From: an uncultured Gemmatimonadota bacterium
GTDB lineage: Bacteria; JAAXHH01
Length of the DNA stretch: 64,000 bases
Reading direction: 5' to 3'
Assembly (NCBI GenBank): GCA_951812955.1
Contig: OX638340.1
Location: forward strand, 2,240,001-2,304,000
Of this stretch, positions 11,137 to 18,787 are shown piece by piece (positions within the stretch are counted from its first letter, which is position 1; the number at the start of each line of letters is the position of its first letter). The translations under genes and the position numbers were made by a program. Under the pieces are notes generated by a model, which was given only the letters and a program-made list of their open reading frames with translations, was not told the DNA's origin and did not search any database.

Positions 11137-11214
11137 GTGGGCTTTACGGATAGACCAGTTGATATTACGACCACATTTATTTGCTCATTGATTTACTGTA
11201 TCTCGAGGTTACAA

Positions 11215-11505
11215 ATGGACGTTAAGGAAGCCGTAAGTACGGCCATAAAACATATTGCAGATGTATACTCGGAAGAGGGAATCTCGCATATTGGATTAGA
11301 AGAGGTAGAATACGACGAGATTAACTCACAATGGAACGTGACCGTTGGATTTGCACGTAAGTGGGACTTCCCTACTCCGGTTCTTATCCCCGTATTACCT
11401 TCACCAAGACCAAACCAAAGAACCTACAAAATCGTAGTAATTCGTGATAGAGACAAGAAGGTCACCGCAATGAAGATAAGGGATTTAGCTACGTCGAATG
11501 AATAG
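11215..11505 (+). CDS. Small hypothetical protein, possible cognate partner of the downstream PIN protein. First gene of the lower-GC insert.
   Basis: ATG with AGG Shine-Dalgarno about 8 nt upstream. The ORF track starts at a GTG at 11137, immediately after the PhyH stop. The 3' end overlaps the PIN gene by 8 nt. No recognisable antitoxin fold. Confidence 0.4.
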   Translation: MDVKEAVSTAIKHIADVYSEEGISHIGLEEVEYDEINSQWNVTVGFARKWDFPTPVLIPVLPSPRPNQRTYKIVVIRDRDKKVTAMKIRDLATSNE

Positions 11506-11968
11506 TGTGCTTATAGATACGAATCTACTTGTCCTTTTGGTTGTAGGATCTACCGATAGAGAGTTTATTAGTCGACATAAACGCACAAAATCGTTCATAC
11601 CCAGAGACTATGACGAACTGACACGTCTGTTGTCGGGATCTCGTGAGTTATGGGTTACTTCTCACTGTCTGGCAGAGACATCGAATCTTCTGAAGCAAAC
11701 CGATAAAACAAAAGCACAGATCTTGTTACATACTCTTGCGGCCTACTGCGATATTGCCCGCGAATCGCATATTCCCAAAGAGACGGTATTTGGATACGAG
11801 AACTACCGCAGACTTGGCGTCACCGACACCGGCTTCATATACTCATCCGAAACAGTCTCTCGATCTATAACAGTAGATTTCAACTTGTACATCGAACTGA
11901 GTAACCTTGGCAGAGAAGTGATAAACTTCCACCACATCCGTGCTTCGTATCTCCAGAATGTCGATTGA
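11498..11968 (+). CDS. PIN-domain protein (VapC-like putative RNase toxin)
   Basis: N-terminal MNSVLIDTNLLVLL is the hallmark PIN start. 156 aa. Located in the lower-GC island. Confidence 0.6.
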   Translation: MNSVLIDTNLLVLLVVGSTDREFISRHKRTKSFIPRDYDELTRLLSGSRELWVTSHCLAETSNLLKQTDKTKAQILLHTLAAYCDIARESHIPKETVFGYENYRRLGVTDTGFIYSSETVSRSITVDFNLYIELSNLGREVINFHHIRASYLQNVD

Positions 11969-12089
11969 CACGACGATCACACAGTTTTGCACATTCCAGT
12001 GCTTAGTTTTTGGTCAAGACCAACCTGTAGTTAAAACCAACCAATGGCCCTGAAGAAATCCCAAAATTTGGTAAACACTGCCAGGAGAG

Positions 12090-13034
12090 ATGCCACCTAT
12101 GCTTGACGAATTGGTTGGATGTATCGATGAACTTAAAGATCGTATTTCCAAATACCGAAACTCACTAAATGAGAACGAAACTCGTACTCGAATGCAGTTA
12201 ATAGATCCGCTGCTTCGTGTGCTGGGCTGGGACGTCTCCGATCCACGGTACGTTATCCCAGAATTCAAGGTGTCCGATGGTTGGGCTGACTATGCCTTAT
12301 TGCGGGATGATGGTAAGCCTGCTGCTATGGTGGAAGCTAAAAAACTGGACGAACCGTTAAAGCCCGCACACCGTGCTCAGATGTTGAAATACGCAATTGA
12401 GTTGGGTATCCCATACACTGGTTTGACAGATGGAAATCACTGGGAGTTGTACAATGTTTTCCAACCGGTACCTATGGAGGACAAACAGATCTTGGATGTT
12501 ACTTTATTGGATTCCCACTCCCACGAAAGTGCACTAAAGTTACTGCTGCTCTGGAATCCAAATCTAGACGCCGGCAGCGCGGTGAAAGCAAATGAACCTG
12601 TTCTCGTCGACACTCAGAATGGCGGTTCGATTCCTCCAATAATCGTTCCGCCACCATCGAACTGGAAGGCACTTTCAGATTACGAACCACCAGCAGGAAC
12701 ACCCGCACCTAAGGCTATTAGGCTTTGGGATGACTCAGAAAGAGAAGTGCATCATTGGTATGAAATTCTCACCATAGTAGCCGAAAAGCTCTACAACGAA
12801 AATGTCCTTACATTGGAACATATACCGATTCAATGGGCTAAAAAGACCTATAGTATTCACTCTCAACCAGTACATCCGACCGGCAACAAGTTTGAAAATC
12901 ATAAAGAAATCGGTAACTCGGGATTGTTCGTAAACGTAAATTTAAATACCGGTCAAGTACGAAATAACACCCGGAATCTACTGAAGAAATACAACATTGG
13001 TACAGAGAAGGTTTACCTCAAGGTAGCCGATTAG
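12090..13034 (+). CDS. Stand-alone type I restriction enzyme HsdR N-terminal-like (PD-(D/E)xK nuclease) domain protein with an uncharacterised C-terminal half
   Basis: NETRTRMQLIDPLLRVLGW ... DGWADYALL ... AAMVEAKKLDE matches the HsdR_N motif (ETRT..IDP.L..LGW, D...EAK). Confidence 0.6.
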   Translation: MPPMLDELVGCIDELKDRISKYRNSLNENETRTRMQLIDPLLRVLGWDVSDPRYVIPEFKVSDGWADYALLRDDGKPAAMVEAKKLDEPLKPAHRAQMLKYAIELGIPYTGLTDGNHWELYNVFQPVPMEDKQILDVTLLDSHSHESALKLLLLWNPNLDAGSAVKANEPVLVDTQNGGSIPPIIVPPPSNWKALSDYEPPAGTPAPKAIRLWDDSEREVHHWYEILTIVAEKLYNENVLTLEHIPIQWAKKTYSIHSQPVHPTGNKFENHKEIGNSGLFVNVNLNTGQVRNNTRNLLKKYNIGTEKVYLKVAD

Positions 13035-13444
13035 GTAGTTTCGTTGACCTACCATGTTGAGGAGTGATATTTCTTGATCTCCACAGACAAGGTTAAGGGT
13101 AAACCACAGCATACCTCCTCACTATCAGGCACGGTTCCTCAGTACGTTGAAGCGATATCAGCAACTCGCTAGCTAGCAGCTACCTGCCCCGTCGCATGGA
13201 ATACTGGGTACAAACCGTCTTTCACTTTAGTGGCGATTTGTTCACGGCTCCGTTCGTCAAATACAATTGAGCCCACTAATTCCACCTGTTTACCTCGACA
13301 AACAAGAGTACAGATCAATCACTTCGTATGACAAAACTCATTCAACTTCTATTCGAAATTGGAATCGGTGACCACCACTCAACCTCTGAATCGTGTGAGA
13401 CTGATGAAGATTCGCTGGTACATGGAAAGGATAATGGAGTGTAA

Positions 13445-15622
13445 TTGATGAATTCAACGTCTGAAGAAACCACCACCCGTCCCTGTTGGTTTGTGGGCGC
13501 CAGTTATTCTGGTACGGGCGATCAAACTGAGCGATTTCTCACGGAAGGTATCTGGGAGAACGGCTTCGACAACGATCATCCGGCCGTCGCGATGACCAAA
13601 ACCATTCAGCCCGGAGACCCAATCGCGATCAAGTCCGCCTACGTTCGCAAACACGACCTACCTTTTGACAGTCGCAACCAGTTCGTATCCGTAATGGCGA
13701 TCAAGGCCATCGGGACGGTTTTAGAGAACATCGGTGATGGCCATACCGTTAAGGTTAAATGGAATAAGGAGGTAACTCCGCGAGAATGGTATTTCTTTAC
13801 TAACAGAGGTACAGTTTGGAAAGTATCGCCTGGTAGTGACTGGTATTCCGACGCCCTGATCGGATTCGCGTTCGAGAACAAGCCGCAGGATATCGATCGT
13901 TTCTTAAAAGTGCCGTATTGGAGGGAGAGGTATCGAGGAGACACGCTCAATGATCAACGGTTTGCGTGGACGAGGTTCTACGAGGCCTTTGCGGATAAGC
14001 TGCTCACATATAGGAACAAGCGCTTAGACTTAATAAATGGTATACAAGAAATAGCTGCCAGAGAGTATGCCATGTTGGTTCTGAGGGATCAGTTTCGGGA
14101 CGGTACGATCGGTCCACTCAAAGACATATGCCCATTTACTACCATCGGATTGTTCAATAAGGGAATAACGAATAGCAATCGAAGATCAATTGCATCAGAA
14201 CTCGCTGAATTGCTGGGAGTGTCAGAGTCGGTTCCGGATTCATTCGATGGAATACCTGTTCTCAACAATCAGAATTCCTGGTTTTTTTCGTATGAAAAAA
14301 ACCGACGACCGGAAGATATTGAAATCCTTTGGAATGTTTACTCCCGTGCAATTGCCTTCGCTGATTCAGATGATTCCGATGCGCGATCTGCTTTCGTCTC
14401 TGCTTACGACGACGCATCCGAGGTTTCTCACGTAGGTTGGAAACTTACATTTGGGCTGTATTGGATACGGCCTTGGGATTTCCCCGTCCTCGACACGAAT
14501 ACCCGGCGTTACCTGGACAAGAAACTCAATATTGAGATCGGACTAAATGGACCGAAAAGGGGATACTGTAGTGCGAACGACTACCTGACGGTCCATGACA
14601 CACTTGAAAAGAGGTTTCTGGAGGACACATATCCGGTTCGTTCTTTTCCAGAACTAGCACGCGAAGCCTGGTTGTATAAGCCCGGTGACCCGGATCCCCC
14701 GCCAGATAGCGGTCTGGATCCCCCGCCACCACCTGTCCCTTATTCACTCGATGATATCGTGAAAGACGGCTGTTTCATTGCCAGAGATAAACTCGAGTCG
14801 ATACTCAATCGACTCCGTACCAAGAAAAACCTCATTCTACAAGGCCCTCCAGGAACCGGGAAGACTTGGCTCGCCAGGAAGTTGGCCTACGCTTTGATCT
14901 GTGAGCGAGACGAAAGCAAGGTTCGTTCGGTACAGTTCCATCCCAATCTCTCTTACGAAGATTTCGTACGTGGTTGGCGGCCGGCGGGAGATGGTAAACT
15001 TACGCTCGTAGATGGCCCCTTCATCGCCATAAGGGACGAGGCCGAAAAAGATCCTACTACTCGATACGTCTTGGTCATCGAAGAGATCAACCGGGGCAAT
15101 CCCGCACAGATTTTCGGCGAGATGCTGACATTGTTGGAGACCGACAAGCGAACTCCAGACGAAGCCTTGGAATTGGTTTATTCAAAGACTCCGGATGAGC
15201 GATTCTTTGTTCCTAACAATCTGTTTGTCATCGGGACGATGAACATTGCTGATCGTTCACTGGCACTTGTAGACCTGGCATTACGCCGTAGATTTGCATT
15301 TATCGATCTGGAACCTACCCTTGGCAAGACTTGGCGAGACTGGGTCCATTCTAAAAACGGGATAGATAACGAGACTCTCACCGAAATTGAGCATCGTATA
15401 GATGATCTGAACCGGACGATCTCCAATGATTCCGGTCTTGGCTCGCAATTTCGCTTGGGGCACAGTTATGTGACGCCGCCGTTTGAACAGCCGATTAAAG
15501 ATGGGAGAAAGTGGTACAGGGAAGTCGTTGAAACGGAAATTGGACCACTACTCGACGAATACTGGTTCGAAGACCTCGCGAAATCTAGAAACGCAAAAAA
15601 GAAACTTTTGGATGGTTTTTAG
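13445..15622 (+). CDS. mcrB: McrB-family AAA+ GTPase (5-methylcytosine-specific restriction subunit homolog) with a long (about 440 aa) divergent N-terminal region
   Basis: McrB signatures are present: ILQGPPGTGKTW (Walker A), FHPNLSYEDFVRGWRP, VIEEINRGNPAQIFGE (NxxN GTPase motif), FVIGTMNIADRS and ALRRRFAFIDL. Confidence 0.85.
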   Translation: MMNSTSEETTTRPCWFVGASYSGTGDQTERFLTEGIWENGFDNDHPAVAMTKTIQPGDPIAIKSAYVRKHDLPFDSRNQFVSVMAIKAIGTVLENIGDGHTVKVKWNKEVTPREWYFFTNRGTVWKVSPGSDWYSDALIGFAFENKPQDIDRFLKVPYWRERYRGDTLNDQRFAWTRFYEAFADKLLTYRNKRLDLINGIQEIAAREYAMLVLRDQFRDGTIGPLKDICPFTTIGLFNKGITNSNRRSIASELAELLGVSESVPDSFDGIPVLNNQNSWFFSYEKNRRPEDIEILWNVYSRAIAFADSDDSDARSAFVSAYDDASEVSHVGWKLTFGLYWIRPWDFPVLDTNTRRYLDKKLNIEIGLNGPKRGYCSANDYLTVHDTLEKRFLEDTYPVRSFPELAREAWLYKPGDPDPPPDSGLDPPPPPVPYSLDDIVKDGCFIARDKLESILNRLRTKKNLILQGPPGTGKTWLARKLAYALICERDESKVRSVQFHPNLSYEDFVRGWRPAGDGKLTLVDGPFIAIRDEAEKDPTTRYVLVIEEINRGNPAQIFGEMLTLLETDKRTPDEALELVYSKTPDERFFVPNNLFVIGTMNIADRSLALVDLALRRRFAFIDLEPTLGKTWRDWVHSKNGIDNETLTEIEHRIDDLNRTISNDSGLGSQFRLGHSYVTPPFEQPIKDGRKWYREVVETEIGPLLDEYWFEDLAKSRNAKKKLLDGF

Positions 15623-16743
15623 TGGTGAATGGCCCAGTAGTTAGTACGGCTGACGAGACGATCGAACAGGCCGGGTATATCGGTCGTATCCCTTTACGAA
15701 ATATCTGGCTGCTCATGCTTTACGCCTCTGACCTTTTCAGGCAACTTGATGCGTCTGAATACCGCTCCTTCGAAGATAATCCTGATGACCTGCCCGATCT
15801 GGTTGCCGAGATCCTATCACATGAAGTCGAACGTCGACTAAAGCGAAATCTGAGTTACGGCTACCAATACCGTAACGAAGTGCTCGGACGGGTTCGCGGA
15901 CGTATCGACCTTTTACAAACCGAAGCTCATCAACTACTGCAACGCGGCATGGTCGCCTGTCGATTCGACGAACTGACAATCGACACACCGAGGAACAGGT
16001 ACGTTCGATCCGCCCTCGAGATGATATCCAAATATGTTCGTCGAAAAGACCTGGCTCACCAGTGCAGGTCCCTCGTTGGAAGCCTTAGGCGACAGGGAGT
16101 CGTTGGAGAACGACCTGGGCGTGAGGTGACGTCAGTTGAGCGATACGGTAGACATGACGCTGTTGACCGCAAGATGGTGGATGCGGCTCGTCTTGCCTTC
16201 GAAATGGCCATTCCGACCGAGCAGACCGGTTCCAGGCACCTTCCACTACCGGACCGTGATATAAACTGGATTCGCAGACTCTATGAGAAAGGCGTTGCAG
16301 GATTCTATGATGTGGTACTTTCCAGAAGGGGATGGAATGTGTATCCGGGAACGATTCTCAGATGGCCCACGACAGTCAGAAGTCCGCGAATAGACGGGAT
16401 ACTACCCTCCATGCGGACCGATATTGTGTTGGATCATGTTGACGAAGGCCGACGGATCGTTATAGACACGAAATTCAACTCGGTTTTGTCGAGAGGTTGG
16501 TATCGAAATGAAGGGATACGAAGCGGATACATGTACCAGATCTATGCTTACCTTAGGTCGCAGGAAGAGAGTGGTGATCCGCTTGATTGTAATGCAGAGG
16601 GAATGTTTCTCCATCCGTCGGTTGGTGAGATGTTCAACGAATGGGTAGATATTCAGGGTCATCGGATCCACTTCAATACCGTTGATCTCGCAACCGATAC
16701 ACAGACCATCAGATCGCAGTTGTTGGATGCGGTGAAACCTTAA
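15622..16743 (+). CDS. mcrC: McrC-family nuclease subunit
   Basis: GTG start overlapping the mcrB stop (TAGTG), 373 aa, C-terminal PD-(D/E)xK-like IVLDHVDEGRRIVIDTKF. Position immediately after mcrB supports the call. Confidence 0.7.
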   Translation: MVNGPVVSTADETIEQAGYIGRIPLRNIWLLMLYASDLFRQLDASEYRSFEDNPDDLPDLVAEILSHEVERRLKRNLSYGYQYRNEVLGRVRGRIDLLQTEAHQLLQRGMVACRFDELTIDTPRNRYVRSALEMISKYVRRKDLAHQCRSLVGSLRRQGVVGERPGREVTSVERYGRHDAVDRKMVDAARLAFEMAIPTEQTGSRHLPLPDRDINWIRRLYEKGVAGFYDVVLSRRGWNVYPGTILRWPTTVRSPRIDGILPSMRTDIVLDHVDEGRRIVIDTKFNSVLSRGWYRNEGIRSGYMYQIYAYLRSQEESGDPLDCNAEGMFLHPSVGEMFNEWVDIQGHRIHFNTVDLATDTQTIRSQLLDAVKP

Positions 16744-16834: not shown

Positions 16835-17761
16835 TCACCCCGCCTTCCTGAAGACCTCGAAACGACGGTCCAGCCGGTCCTGGTCCGGATGGTCACGGGT
16901 GCGTGAAGGCAGGTGCAGTCCCGATCCGTCCAGTTGCTTGAGGGCCTGGAGCATGGGACCGTCATCCTTGTCCAGCAGGCGGTCGGATACGTGCAGCCGG
17001 TAGTCGGGATCAATGCCGATCAGGTGGGCGTCAAAGGCCGCATGATGAATCTTGGACAGGGCCAAGCCGTTGGGTACGACGGGTTGTCCCAATGCCTCGT
17101 CGCCATCGGCAATGATGTGGGCGGCATCCAGTAACTGCGTTTCCGGTAGGCCGGTAATGGCACAGCGGCCGCGATAGGCGTGAAGGACAGCCTCGCGGAA
17201 CGTGGCTTGGTGGAGTCGTTCCTTGACCATGCGCAGGGCATACCGCCGCTCTACCGCGTTAATCGGAGCTTCCATCTCGGCCTGGTTGGGGTTCCCAAAG
17301 GCAAGCGTGGACTTGAGCGCGAATCCATCCCAATTGGAGATGAAGGTGGGAATGATCGCCTGATACCGGCTGGGAGACACACCGAGAAAGTAGATCACGG
17401 GAATCTGATTCTCCCAGGCAACCTTTAACCACTGGTTGTCTGCTGCTGCCGGGTCCTGTCCCATGAAGGCGTAGTCCACGGAATCGTTGCCCTCGAAAAT
17501 CTGGCTGTGGACCTGCTTTTGGTCGTCGTACCAGACTCGGCCGCCCGGTCTGGGGTACACGGTCCTGATCGAGAGAAGGTACCGCATCCGGCGCGGCTTG
17601 AATATGCCCCGCTGCGGATTGACAAGGGGGATCCTTTCGCCTTCGAATACGAACCCCGGCGCCAGTTCGTCCCTCGTAAGGTGGCCATGGGTTTCACTCA
17701 GCCGCCGCACGTGATCGAACGCGGCCATCCGCATCCTCGGATCTCGGTCGTCGACGTTCAT
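16835..17761 (-). CDS. HNH_2-family endonuclease with an N-terminal putative DNA-modification reader domain (type IV restriction-like)
   Basis: C-terminal YRGRCAITGLPETQLLDAAHIIADGDE ... NGLALSKIHHAAFD is the HNH_2 pattern (C..TG...L.AAHI.P ... NGL.L....H..FD). Confidence 0.7.
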   Translation of the reverse strand: MNVDDRDPRMRMAAFDHVRRLSETHGHLTRDELAPGFVFEGERIPLVNPQRGIFKPRRMRYLLSIRTVYPRPGGRVWYDDQKQVHSQIFEGNDSVDYAFMGQDPAAADNQWLKVAWENQIPVIYFLGVSPSRYQAIIPTFISNWDGFALKSTLAFGNPNQAEMEAPINAVERRYALRMVKERLHQATFREAVLHAYRGRCAITGLPETQLLDAAHIIADGDEALGQPVVPNGLALSKIHHAAFDAHLIGIDPDYRLHVSDRLLDKDDGPMLQALKQLDGSGLHLPSRTRDHPDQDRLDRRFEVFRKAG

Positions 17762-17770
17762 CTCAGTCCT

Positions 17771-18787
17771 TTACCCCCGGTAAATCCTCTCATTGTGCCA
17801 GGATAGTACTTCGGTGGACGGCTGGTCCACCGCATTCCTGGGAACGACAATCTGTTTCCCGTGCAAAGAGTAGTAATCGCGCCCGTTCTCGAATTCCTCC
17901 CGGACCTGTCCGCTGACCTCGAAGTGCAATTCAGGGGTCACCGTTACGTATCCGGAATCGAACAGCCCGTGGATGTCGCGCCTTAGCAGCAGTCCGTTCC
18001 TGGCTTCGTGGATGCCCCCTTCGCTGTAGGGACGGATGTGCGCGGCATCAAGGGCCGGCAGCGTCCGTTCGCGGGTAACTGCGCAACGGCGGTCGTAAAG
18101 GTCGGTTACCAGGGCCCTGAAAGCACCTTGACCGAGACGCGGTTTGACCAGTTGCGGTTTGCCGTAAAGGGTTTGCCCGGCCAGGAGGCCTGAGGGTTCG
18201 GCCACGATGCCGGCAGGATTTGCAGATACACTGGTTGGCTGTCGGAATTCCAAACGGCCGTTGACTGCGTCCCACAATGCCCGTCCGTCTGAGTCACCGG
18301 TACTAAATGTCTTTAGTGACACGATGTTCGGCGACCATGTCGACGGCACATCGACAAACTCGGATGCCTCGAAGAAGAAGGGTTGGGTAAGGATCCGGCA
18401 GCCAATCTTGTAATCGCTCGGCTCACGTGGGTCAACATTACGGTAACGTGAGATACGATTTCGCATTTCCTGCAATGTCTCGGCACCGTTGGCTTCCCCG
18501 AATGCTTCCCATGCAAGGGAACAAGGCATCACATTGGCATAGGCAAAAACGCCGCCGCCAACGATTACGTTGTACGGCGCGTGTAGCTTGAAGAGGAACA
18601 GTTCACCGGGCTGAAGTGCCTTGAAGTTCGTGCCAGAAGGCGCCCAGAAGTTGACCTCCTCCAGGTGCGGCTTCTGCCGGAGAGTCTTGAACCAGTCCCC
18701 GTCGGTCACGGCAACGACCAGCTTGATGTCCATAGCGCGAATTCCGGTAAACTTTGGTGCTATTGGGATACAGGCAGATCCGATCAA
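17771..18787 (-). CDS. HNH_2-family endonuclease with an N-terminal PUA/EVE-like beta-barrel domain (type IV restriction-like)
   Basis: C-terminal RRCAVTRERTLPALDAAHIRPYSEGG ... NGLLLRRDIHGLFDSGYVTV. N-terminal KLVVAVTDGDWFKTLRQ..VNFWAPSG..GELFLFKL resembles PUA-like modified-base readers fused to nucleases. Confidence 0.7.
   Translation of the reverse strand: MIGSACIPIAPKFTGIRAMDIKLVVAVTDGDWFKTLRQKPHLEEVNFWAPSGTNFKALQPGELFLFKLHAPYNVIVGGGVFAYANVMPCSLAWEAFGEANGAETLQEMRNRISRYRNVDPREPSDYKIGCRILTQPFFFEASEFVDVPSTWSPNIVSLKTFSTGDSDGRALWDAVNGRLEFRQPTSVSANPAGIVAEPSGLLAGQTLYGKPQLVKPRLGQGAFRALVTDLYDRRCAVTRERTLPALDAAHIRPYSEGGIHEARNGLLLRRDIHGLFDSGYVTVTPELHFEVSGQVREEFENGRDYYSLHGKQIVVPRNAVDQPSTEVLSWHNERIYRG

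Follow-up and report, generated by a model that had tools for sequence, protein, structure and literature searches.

A McrBC-type restriction locus from an uncultured Gemmatimonadota bacterium: a McrB with a predicted EVE-like reader and a DUF8425 helical module

The N-terminal domains of McrB proteins are swappable specificity modules (PMC11090510, PMC12707154), among which EVE/PUA-like domains are the commonest known class of reader (PMC7641849, PMC12707154), and EVE-McrB is the commonest of all EVE fusions (PMC7641849). Structures are available for the EVE/YTH/PUA-type McrBs of Thermococcus gammatolerans (YTH, PDB 6p0g) and Staphylothermus marinus (PUA-like, PDB 6n0s), as well as for the EVE-HNH protein VcaM4I (PDB 6yex); among the accessory DNA-binding modules of McrBC relatives, LlaI.R1 alone has been characterised structurally. 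In this study, a McrB homologue of an uncultured Gemmatimonadota bacterium was analysed, encoded within a 64,000-nucleotide stretch of DNA (hereafter the window; NCBI GenBank assembly GCA_951812955.1, contig OX638340.1, positions 2,240,001 to 2,304,000 of the forward strand). The protein joins a canonical McrB motor to an N-terminal region composed of two modules, and its gene is followed directly by mcrC. The features of the operon, in window coordinates, are given below (AF2, AlphaFold2; pLDDT, predicted local distance difference test):

13448..15622, + strand: mcrB homologue, 724 amino acids (aa) from ATG 13448, identical to database protein P0001
13478..13939, + strand: module A (residues ~12-165), a divergent EVE/YTH/PUA-like beta-barrel by its model, presumed modified-base reader
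13952..14680, + strand: module B (residues ~170-412), Pfam DUF8425, all-alpha with a small beta-hairpin
14681..14740, + strand: Pro/Asp-rich flexible linker (YKPGDPDPPPDSGLDPPPPPVP; residues ~413-432), pLDDT <50 in both AF2 models
14741..15619, + strand: McrB AAA+ GTPase domain with lid (NCBIfam McrB, AAA_5, motifs; PF28529 McrB_lid)
15622..16743, + strand: mcrC, 373 aa with a GTG start, the PD-(D/E)xK nuclease partner

The open reading frame (ORF) listing placed mcrB at 13445..15622 (+), with 725 aa counted from TTG 13445. The database copy of the protein (100% identical) is 724 aa long, and the start was therefore assigned to ATG 13448, which is preceded by GGAG 9-12 nt in the 5' direction. 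The GTG start of mcrC and the stop codon of mcrB have one base in common.

The GTPase domain is complete (residues ~433-725). As the sequence-only reading had proposed, the C-terminal ~290 aa carry all of the McrB signatures: NCBIfam McrB (NF008457) matches residues 432-722 with E=1.7e-76, AAA_5 matches with 4e-27, and the motifs Walker A (GPPGTGKT, 467-474), Walker B (VLVIEEINR, 542-550), the NxxD-type McrB signature (MNIADRS, 599-605) and RRRF (614-617) are present. McrC was recognised by NCBIfam NF007277 (E=2e-118, 395 bits, exceeding the equivalog cutoff of 338 bits) and by Pfam McrBC (2e-22), and contains the D...D-T-K nuclease motif. Two features by which Type IV McrBC systems are recognised, the GTPase motifs of McrB and an adjacent, co-oriented McrC in which a DUF2357-like N-domain precedes a PD-(D/E)xK nuclease, are thus found together, and the locus is, as judged from its genes, an intact McrBC-type (Type IV) restriction system for which modification-dependent cleavage is predicted. 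Walker A and B, NxxD, RRRF, the lid, the McrC partner and the gene order mcrB-mcrC are all shared with McrBC of E. coli K-12. A pseudogene or artefact was ruled out by the uninterrupted state of both ORFs, the full set of motifs and an McrC score beyond the equivalog cutoff.

The likeness to the E. coli protein ends at the N-terminus. McrB-N of E. coli K-12 is a DUF3578/ADAM domain, to which the window protein has neither a sequence nor a fold match, and the earlier claim that its N-terminus is of another kind was borne out. Searches with residues 1-440 against local Pfam (including MrcB_N/DUF3578 and EVE), PADLOC and PDB sequences returned no match, even at E<=10, and nothing was found by NCBIfam or PDB profile searches; the local Pfam copy predates the DUF8425 and McrB_lid families. 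A division into a beta-rich and a helical domain had also been anticipated, and the AF2 models together with the domain mapping of relatives, from which the module boundaries were taken, place modules A and B accordingly; the N-terminal region had been ended at 14770 (residue 442), which lies just within the GTPase domain.

The region had been called unfamiliar, and this holds in so far as it has no match in the local databases. It is, on the other hand, shared by 2,834 clusters of a 90%-identity collection, recovered with residues 1-440 alone, or by 2,794 representatives at 50% identity (527 with E<=1e-30), and proteins named 'McrB family protein' in RefSeq are among them. Many of the matches are full-length proteins of ~735 aa that share ~61% of their N-terminal residues with the window protein and originate from Pseudomonadota, Chlorobium, Geobacter, Zixibacteria, Dehalococcoidales and Cardiobacteriaceae. 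In their sources the matches are named 'McrB family protein', 'AAA family ATPase' or '5-methylcytosine-specific restriction protein B'. An example is WP_423946398.1 ('McrB family protein' [Pseudomonadota], 735 aa), which has the same A-B-GTPase order and 61% identity over the N-terminal region. Seven 735-aa McrBs (P0036, P0040, P0041, P0077, P0090, P0098 and P0120) have near-equal scores against the window protein (605-611 bits, ~61%), and such scores across distant taxa suggest that one 735-aa variant may have spread horizontally in recent times.

When domains were mapped in the 150 top-ranking representatives, module A fell at ~10-167 and module B at ~169-420, in the orders A-B (83 proteins), B alone (50), B-A (13) and A alone (4). 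Among the 62 representatives considered complete (Met start and complete GTPase) the architectures were A-B-GTPase (26), B-A-GTPase (7), B-GTPase (6) and X-B-GTPase (6), plus rarer combinations. X is Mrr_N in P0234 (Mrr_N-B-GTPase), and P0186 has the order B-Mrr_N-A-GTPase. The N-terminus is therefore composed of two independently mobile modules. In two complete B-GTPase proteins (P0178 and P0263) no other domain was recognisable, and such B-only McrBs would argue that module B is more than a spacer. The precomputed Pfam annotation of the database copy, with names taken from context look-ups, lists DUF8425 (PF28527), AAA_5 and McrB_lid (PF28529). Short fragments with module B only carry PF28527, and therefore DUF8425 is module B. 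It was present in every McrB relative recovered, and its partners, besides module A, are DpnI_C (the winged helix by which DpnI reads N6-methyladenine), Mrr_N and DUF8426. In three longer proteins of ~1,000 aa (P0250, P0257 and P0271) module A apparently lies mid-protein (~340-700), possibly in tandem, with other unannotated regions before it. Locus L011 (1255..4829) holds an inactivated gene for an A-B-DpnI_C (winged helix)-GTPase protein, in which a transposase gene lies within module A and a frameshift splits the Walker A segment from the remaining GTPase.

Module A occupies the swappable reader slot, as had been claimed for the beta-rich part. The AF2 model of residues 1-440 (pLDDT 72.7, predicted template modelling score (pTM) 0.66; 44 input sequences, all >=60% identical) gives it the succession beta-alpha-alpha-beta-beta-beta-beta-alpha, and by this model module A is a predicted divergent member of the EVE/PUA-like class; the hope that the beta-rich half would represent a new class of reader was not borne out. 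Five aromatic residues (W15, W37, F74, W106 and W115), are 97-100% conserved among 88 diverse homologues, a pattern compatible with an aromatic pocket that takes up a flipped base. No Pfam family exists for module A. Its alignment by hhalign to the DUF8426-type 'YWL..G..W' domain, which fills the slot of module A in other McrBs, was weak and co-linear (P=0.005). The module differs from EVE/YTH fusions in that similarity to Pfam EVE or YTH is undetectable in its sequence, and the window McrB differs from the solved EVE/YTH/PUA-McrBs in the extra ~245-aa DUF8425 between reader and motor, which is absent from the solved N-domains. If correctly placed, module A widens the EVE-like superfamily by a subfamily missed by current Pfam models, which is relevant for genome-wide counts of readers.

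Taken together, these features point to a GTP-dependent, modification-dependent Type IV McrBC system residing in a horizontally acquired defence island, a reading to which we assign a probability of roughly 0.7. By analogy with the established McrBC mechanism (PMC7680126, PMC12707154), McrB would form a hexameric GTPase ring activated by McrC. The barrel of module A, tethered via module B and the Pro-rich linker, would bind DNA and flip the modified base into a pocket formed by some of the five conserved aromatic residues, and GTP-driven translocation would lead to cleavage by the PD-(D/E)xK nuclease of McrC. Module B would serve as a common platform coupling readers, or DNA, to the motor, and this is its most likely role in this clade of McrBs.

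Several points weigh against this reading. The confidence of the module A model is moderate (pLDDT ~60-90), and its pocket residues were located by conservation and not by structural superposition. Pfam EVE (PF01878) was matched by 1 of 31 diverse members of module A, at E=0.063, and by none of the others; a profile search against the PDB was negative, no sequence method ties the module to EVE/YTH, and neither sequences nor profiles gave a significant match to Pfam EVE, YTH or ASCH. The representatives were recovered with a query containing both modules, and the constancy of DUF8425 consequently applies to this clade and not to all McrBs. In two closely related loci (L007 and L008) mcrC has decayed, so that selection on the system is not uniform. 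Lastly, DNA binding, modification specificity and activity are predictions for the window McrB, made from genes and models that do not reveal which modification it targets or whether this would be a new one, as had been proposed.

A separate model of module B, based on 31 diverse trimmed homologues, was of high confidence (pLDDT 91.2, pTM 0.88) and shows ten helices and a small beta-hairpin. The conserved residues include W175, D227, P230, F231, T232, N238, R246, P271, D291, W296, W340, P343 and D350, and the module is acidic (mean net charge -6.6, isoelectric point 5.5, for 119 family sequences). A Foldseek search with the model returned nothing at E<=0.001; below this threshold, the top 13 hits (E 0.1-1) were all HhH-GPD glycosylases. 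For this superfamily, which includes glycosylases of the Ogg2 type (Tm1821/MjOgg), OGG1, MutY and EndoIII, none of the methods gave a significant result. Pfam HhH-GPD (PF00730) matched 0 of the 31 module B members, and a PDB profile search with module B gave 0 matches. Alignment by hhalign with Nth/MutY profiles, which were built from database sequences (bait confirmed at 99% identity) and were of low diversity (Neff 2-2.8), scored 16.9 (P=0.13) in run 1 and 23.5 (P=0.012) in run 2, neither significant, with probabilities of 0.5-3.6%; reversed or unrelated controls scored 10-12. The two runs disagree in register: the HhH hairpin and the catalytic Asp fall on VGW332...D350 in run 1 and on IGLFN...GIP271...D291 in run 2. 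The glycines of the hairpin are not conserved in module B, a conserved Lys is absent, and the candidate catalytic Asp residues, all at helix N-termini, are 87-90% conserved and not invariant; a Gly-rich hairpin followed after ~20 residues by an invariant Asp, as expected of HhH-GPD domains, was not found. A literature search for PF28527, DUF8425 or a HhH-GPD domain in McrB retrieved nothing. The resemblance is thus an unproven lead: homology to HhH-GPD proteins is doubtful, and a base-interrogating or base-flipping function of module B is unlikely.

These data bear on two other accounts of module B. It could be a very diverged HhH-GPD domain contacting DNA, in the role of a further base-interrogating reader or, with lower probability, as an enzymatically active glycosylase; given the uniform identity of the sub-threshold Foldseek hits and the weak, discordant sequence comparisons, this account can be offered only tentatively. 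If true, a single translocating motor would carry two base-flipping folds of unrelated type (PUA-like and glycosylase-like), and the targets of B-only McrBs would be found through a glycosylase-derived reader. Alternatively, module B may make no contact with DNA and act as an adaptor or regulator that docks on the AAA+ ring, holding readers, autoinhibiting the motor or sensing a phage protein, for which we see a substantial chance, somewhat short of even. The acidity of DUF8425 across the family fits such a role and would argue against a generic DNA binder. An adaptor would also agree with the arrangement in which module B is constant and the readers vary and can flank it at either end. W, P, F and helix caps predominate among the most conserved residues of the module, as is typical of a structural core, and LlaI may offer a parallel, by analogy only, in that an acidic face of its DNA-binding module meets the motor (bioRxiv 10.64898/2026.08.31.748284). 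Nevertheless, an adaptor would leave the two B-GTPase proteins (P0178 and P0263) without a DNA-recognition domain unless one were supplied in trans, and the conserved R193, R239, R246 and R287 could make a local basic patch. The apparently split gene of L011 lends no support to docking in trans, being a frameshifted pseudogene disrupted by an insertion sequence (IS). A three-gene LlaI/BsuMI-like system acting in trans was ruled out: the window mcrB is a single, fused gene, the 'split' of L011 is an IS-interrupted frameshift, and LlaI.R1 has an ERCC4-like seven-stranded alpha/beta fold unrelated to the all-alpha module B.

A further alternative concerns the target of the whole system, which might be RNA or unmodified sites, as proposed for the CoCoNuT relatives and shown for site-specific systems of the LlaJI type, respectively. 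Modified RNA is indeed a ligand of YTH, EVE and PUA folds in many settings (PMC7641849, PMC11090510). However, by the criteria established for CoCoNuTs (PMC11090510), the window McrB has the NxxD motif (MNIADRS) and not the CoCoNuT NxD, and coiled coils, CSD and extra nucleases were not found. No methyltransferase adjoins the operon within 9-20 kb, and the neighbouring genes encode nucleases of modification-dependent type (two HNH_2 proteins and a PD-(D/E)xK protein, described below), so that this alternative is highly improbable.

The modification-dependent Type IV reading is thus retained, and the window McrB is, as far as its architecture goes, a largely ordinary EVE-type McrBC component, with an arrangement that thousands of proteins have in common and that Pfam covers in part. 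Its annotation should read McrB with an EVE-like reader and DUF8425, with no claim to a new type of reader. Of real interest is the helical half alone: DUF8425 is uncharacterised, widespread and without a solved structural relative, and its role, be it DNA binding, docking of readers or regulation of the motor, would explain how recognition is coupled to translocation in a major branch of Type IV systems.

The GC content is 46-49% at 12-16 kb of the window and ~60% in the remainder, which suggests that the mcrBC block (~12000..16000) was acquired horizontally. The genes flanking the operon are:

12090..13034, + strand: 314-aa HSDR_N-like protein upstream of mcrB, with a weak match to HSDR_N/Type I R-subunit N-terminal (PD-(D/E)xK)
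16835..17761, - strand: HNH_2 endonuclease gene 1, converging on mcrC
17771..18787, - strand: HNH_2 endonuclease gene 2, in tandem with gene 1

The two HNH_2 proteins match the PADLOC HNH profile PDLC04132 (1.6e-28 and 4.3e-15) and, weakly, 'PT-DNA_restrict', and VcaM4I is matched by the HNH portion of the gene 2 product (E=4.5e-7). The ~200-aa N-terminal region of each has no Pfam match. Both are probably further modification-dependent nucleases.

Pairing of mcrB with mcrC is conserved in the related loci L001-L006 and L009. The gene order of the window recurs in L007-L009, where the HNH_2 pair is syntenic with mcrBC; of these relatives of the window island, L009 has an intact mcrC, and in L007 (9149..10400) and L008 (9233..10400) it is reduced to remnants of 46-110 aa beside an intact mcrB. 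A 313-aa equivalent of the HSDR_N-like protein lies upstream of mcrB in L008 and L009, and is replaced by a HARE-HTH-Mrr_cat gene in L007 and in loci of the P0040 type. The loci encoding the 735-aa McrBs are organised differently. In L001-L006 an ADP-ribosylglycohydrolase gene (309-312 aa, 11328..12266) has ~11 nt in common with the end of mcrC, whereas the window operon has no such gene, and the operon of the 735-aa relatives stands beside MADS (MAD7), a 1,821-aa protein and HARE-HTH-Mrr_cat, whereas that of the window is followed by the two convergent HNH_2 genes.

Two small overlapping ORFs lie at the margin of the low-GC block, 11137..11505 (+; 122 aa) and 11498..11968 (+; 156 aa), neither of which has a Pfam match. 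The product of the latter begins MNSVLIDTNLLVLLVVG and has a PIN-like look, and the two ORFs may constitute a toxin-antitoxin pair.
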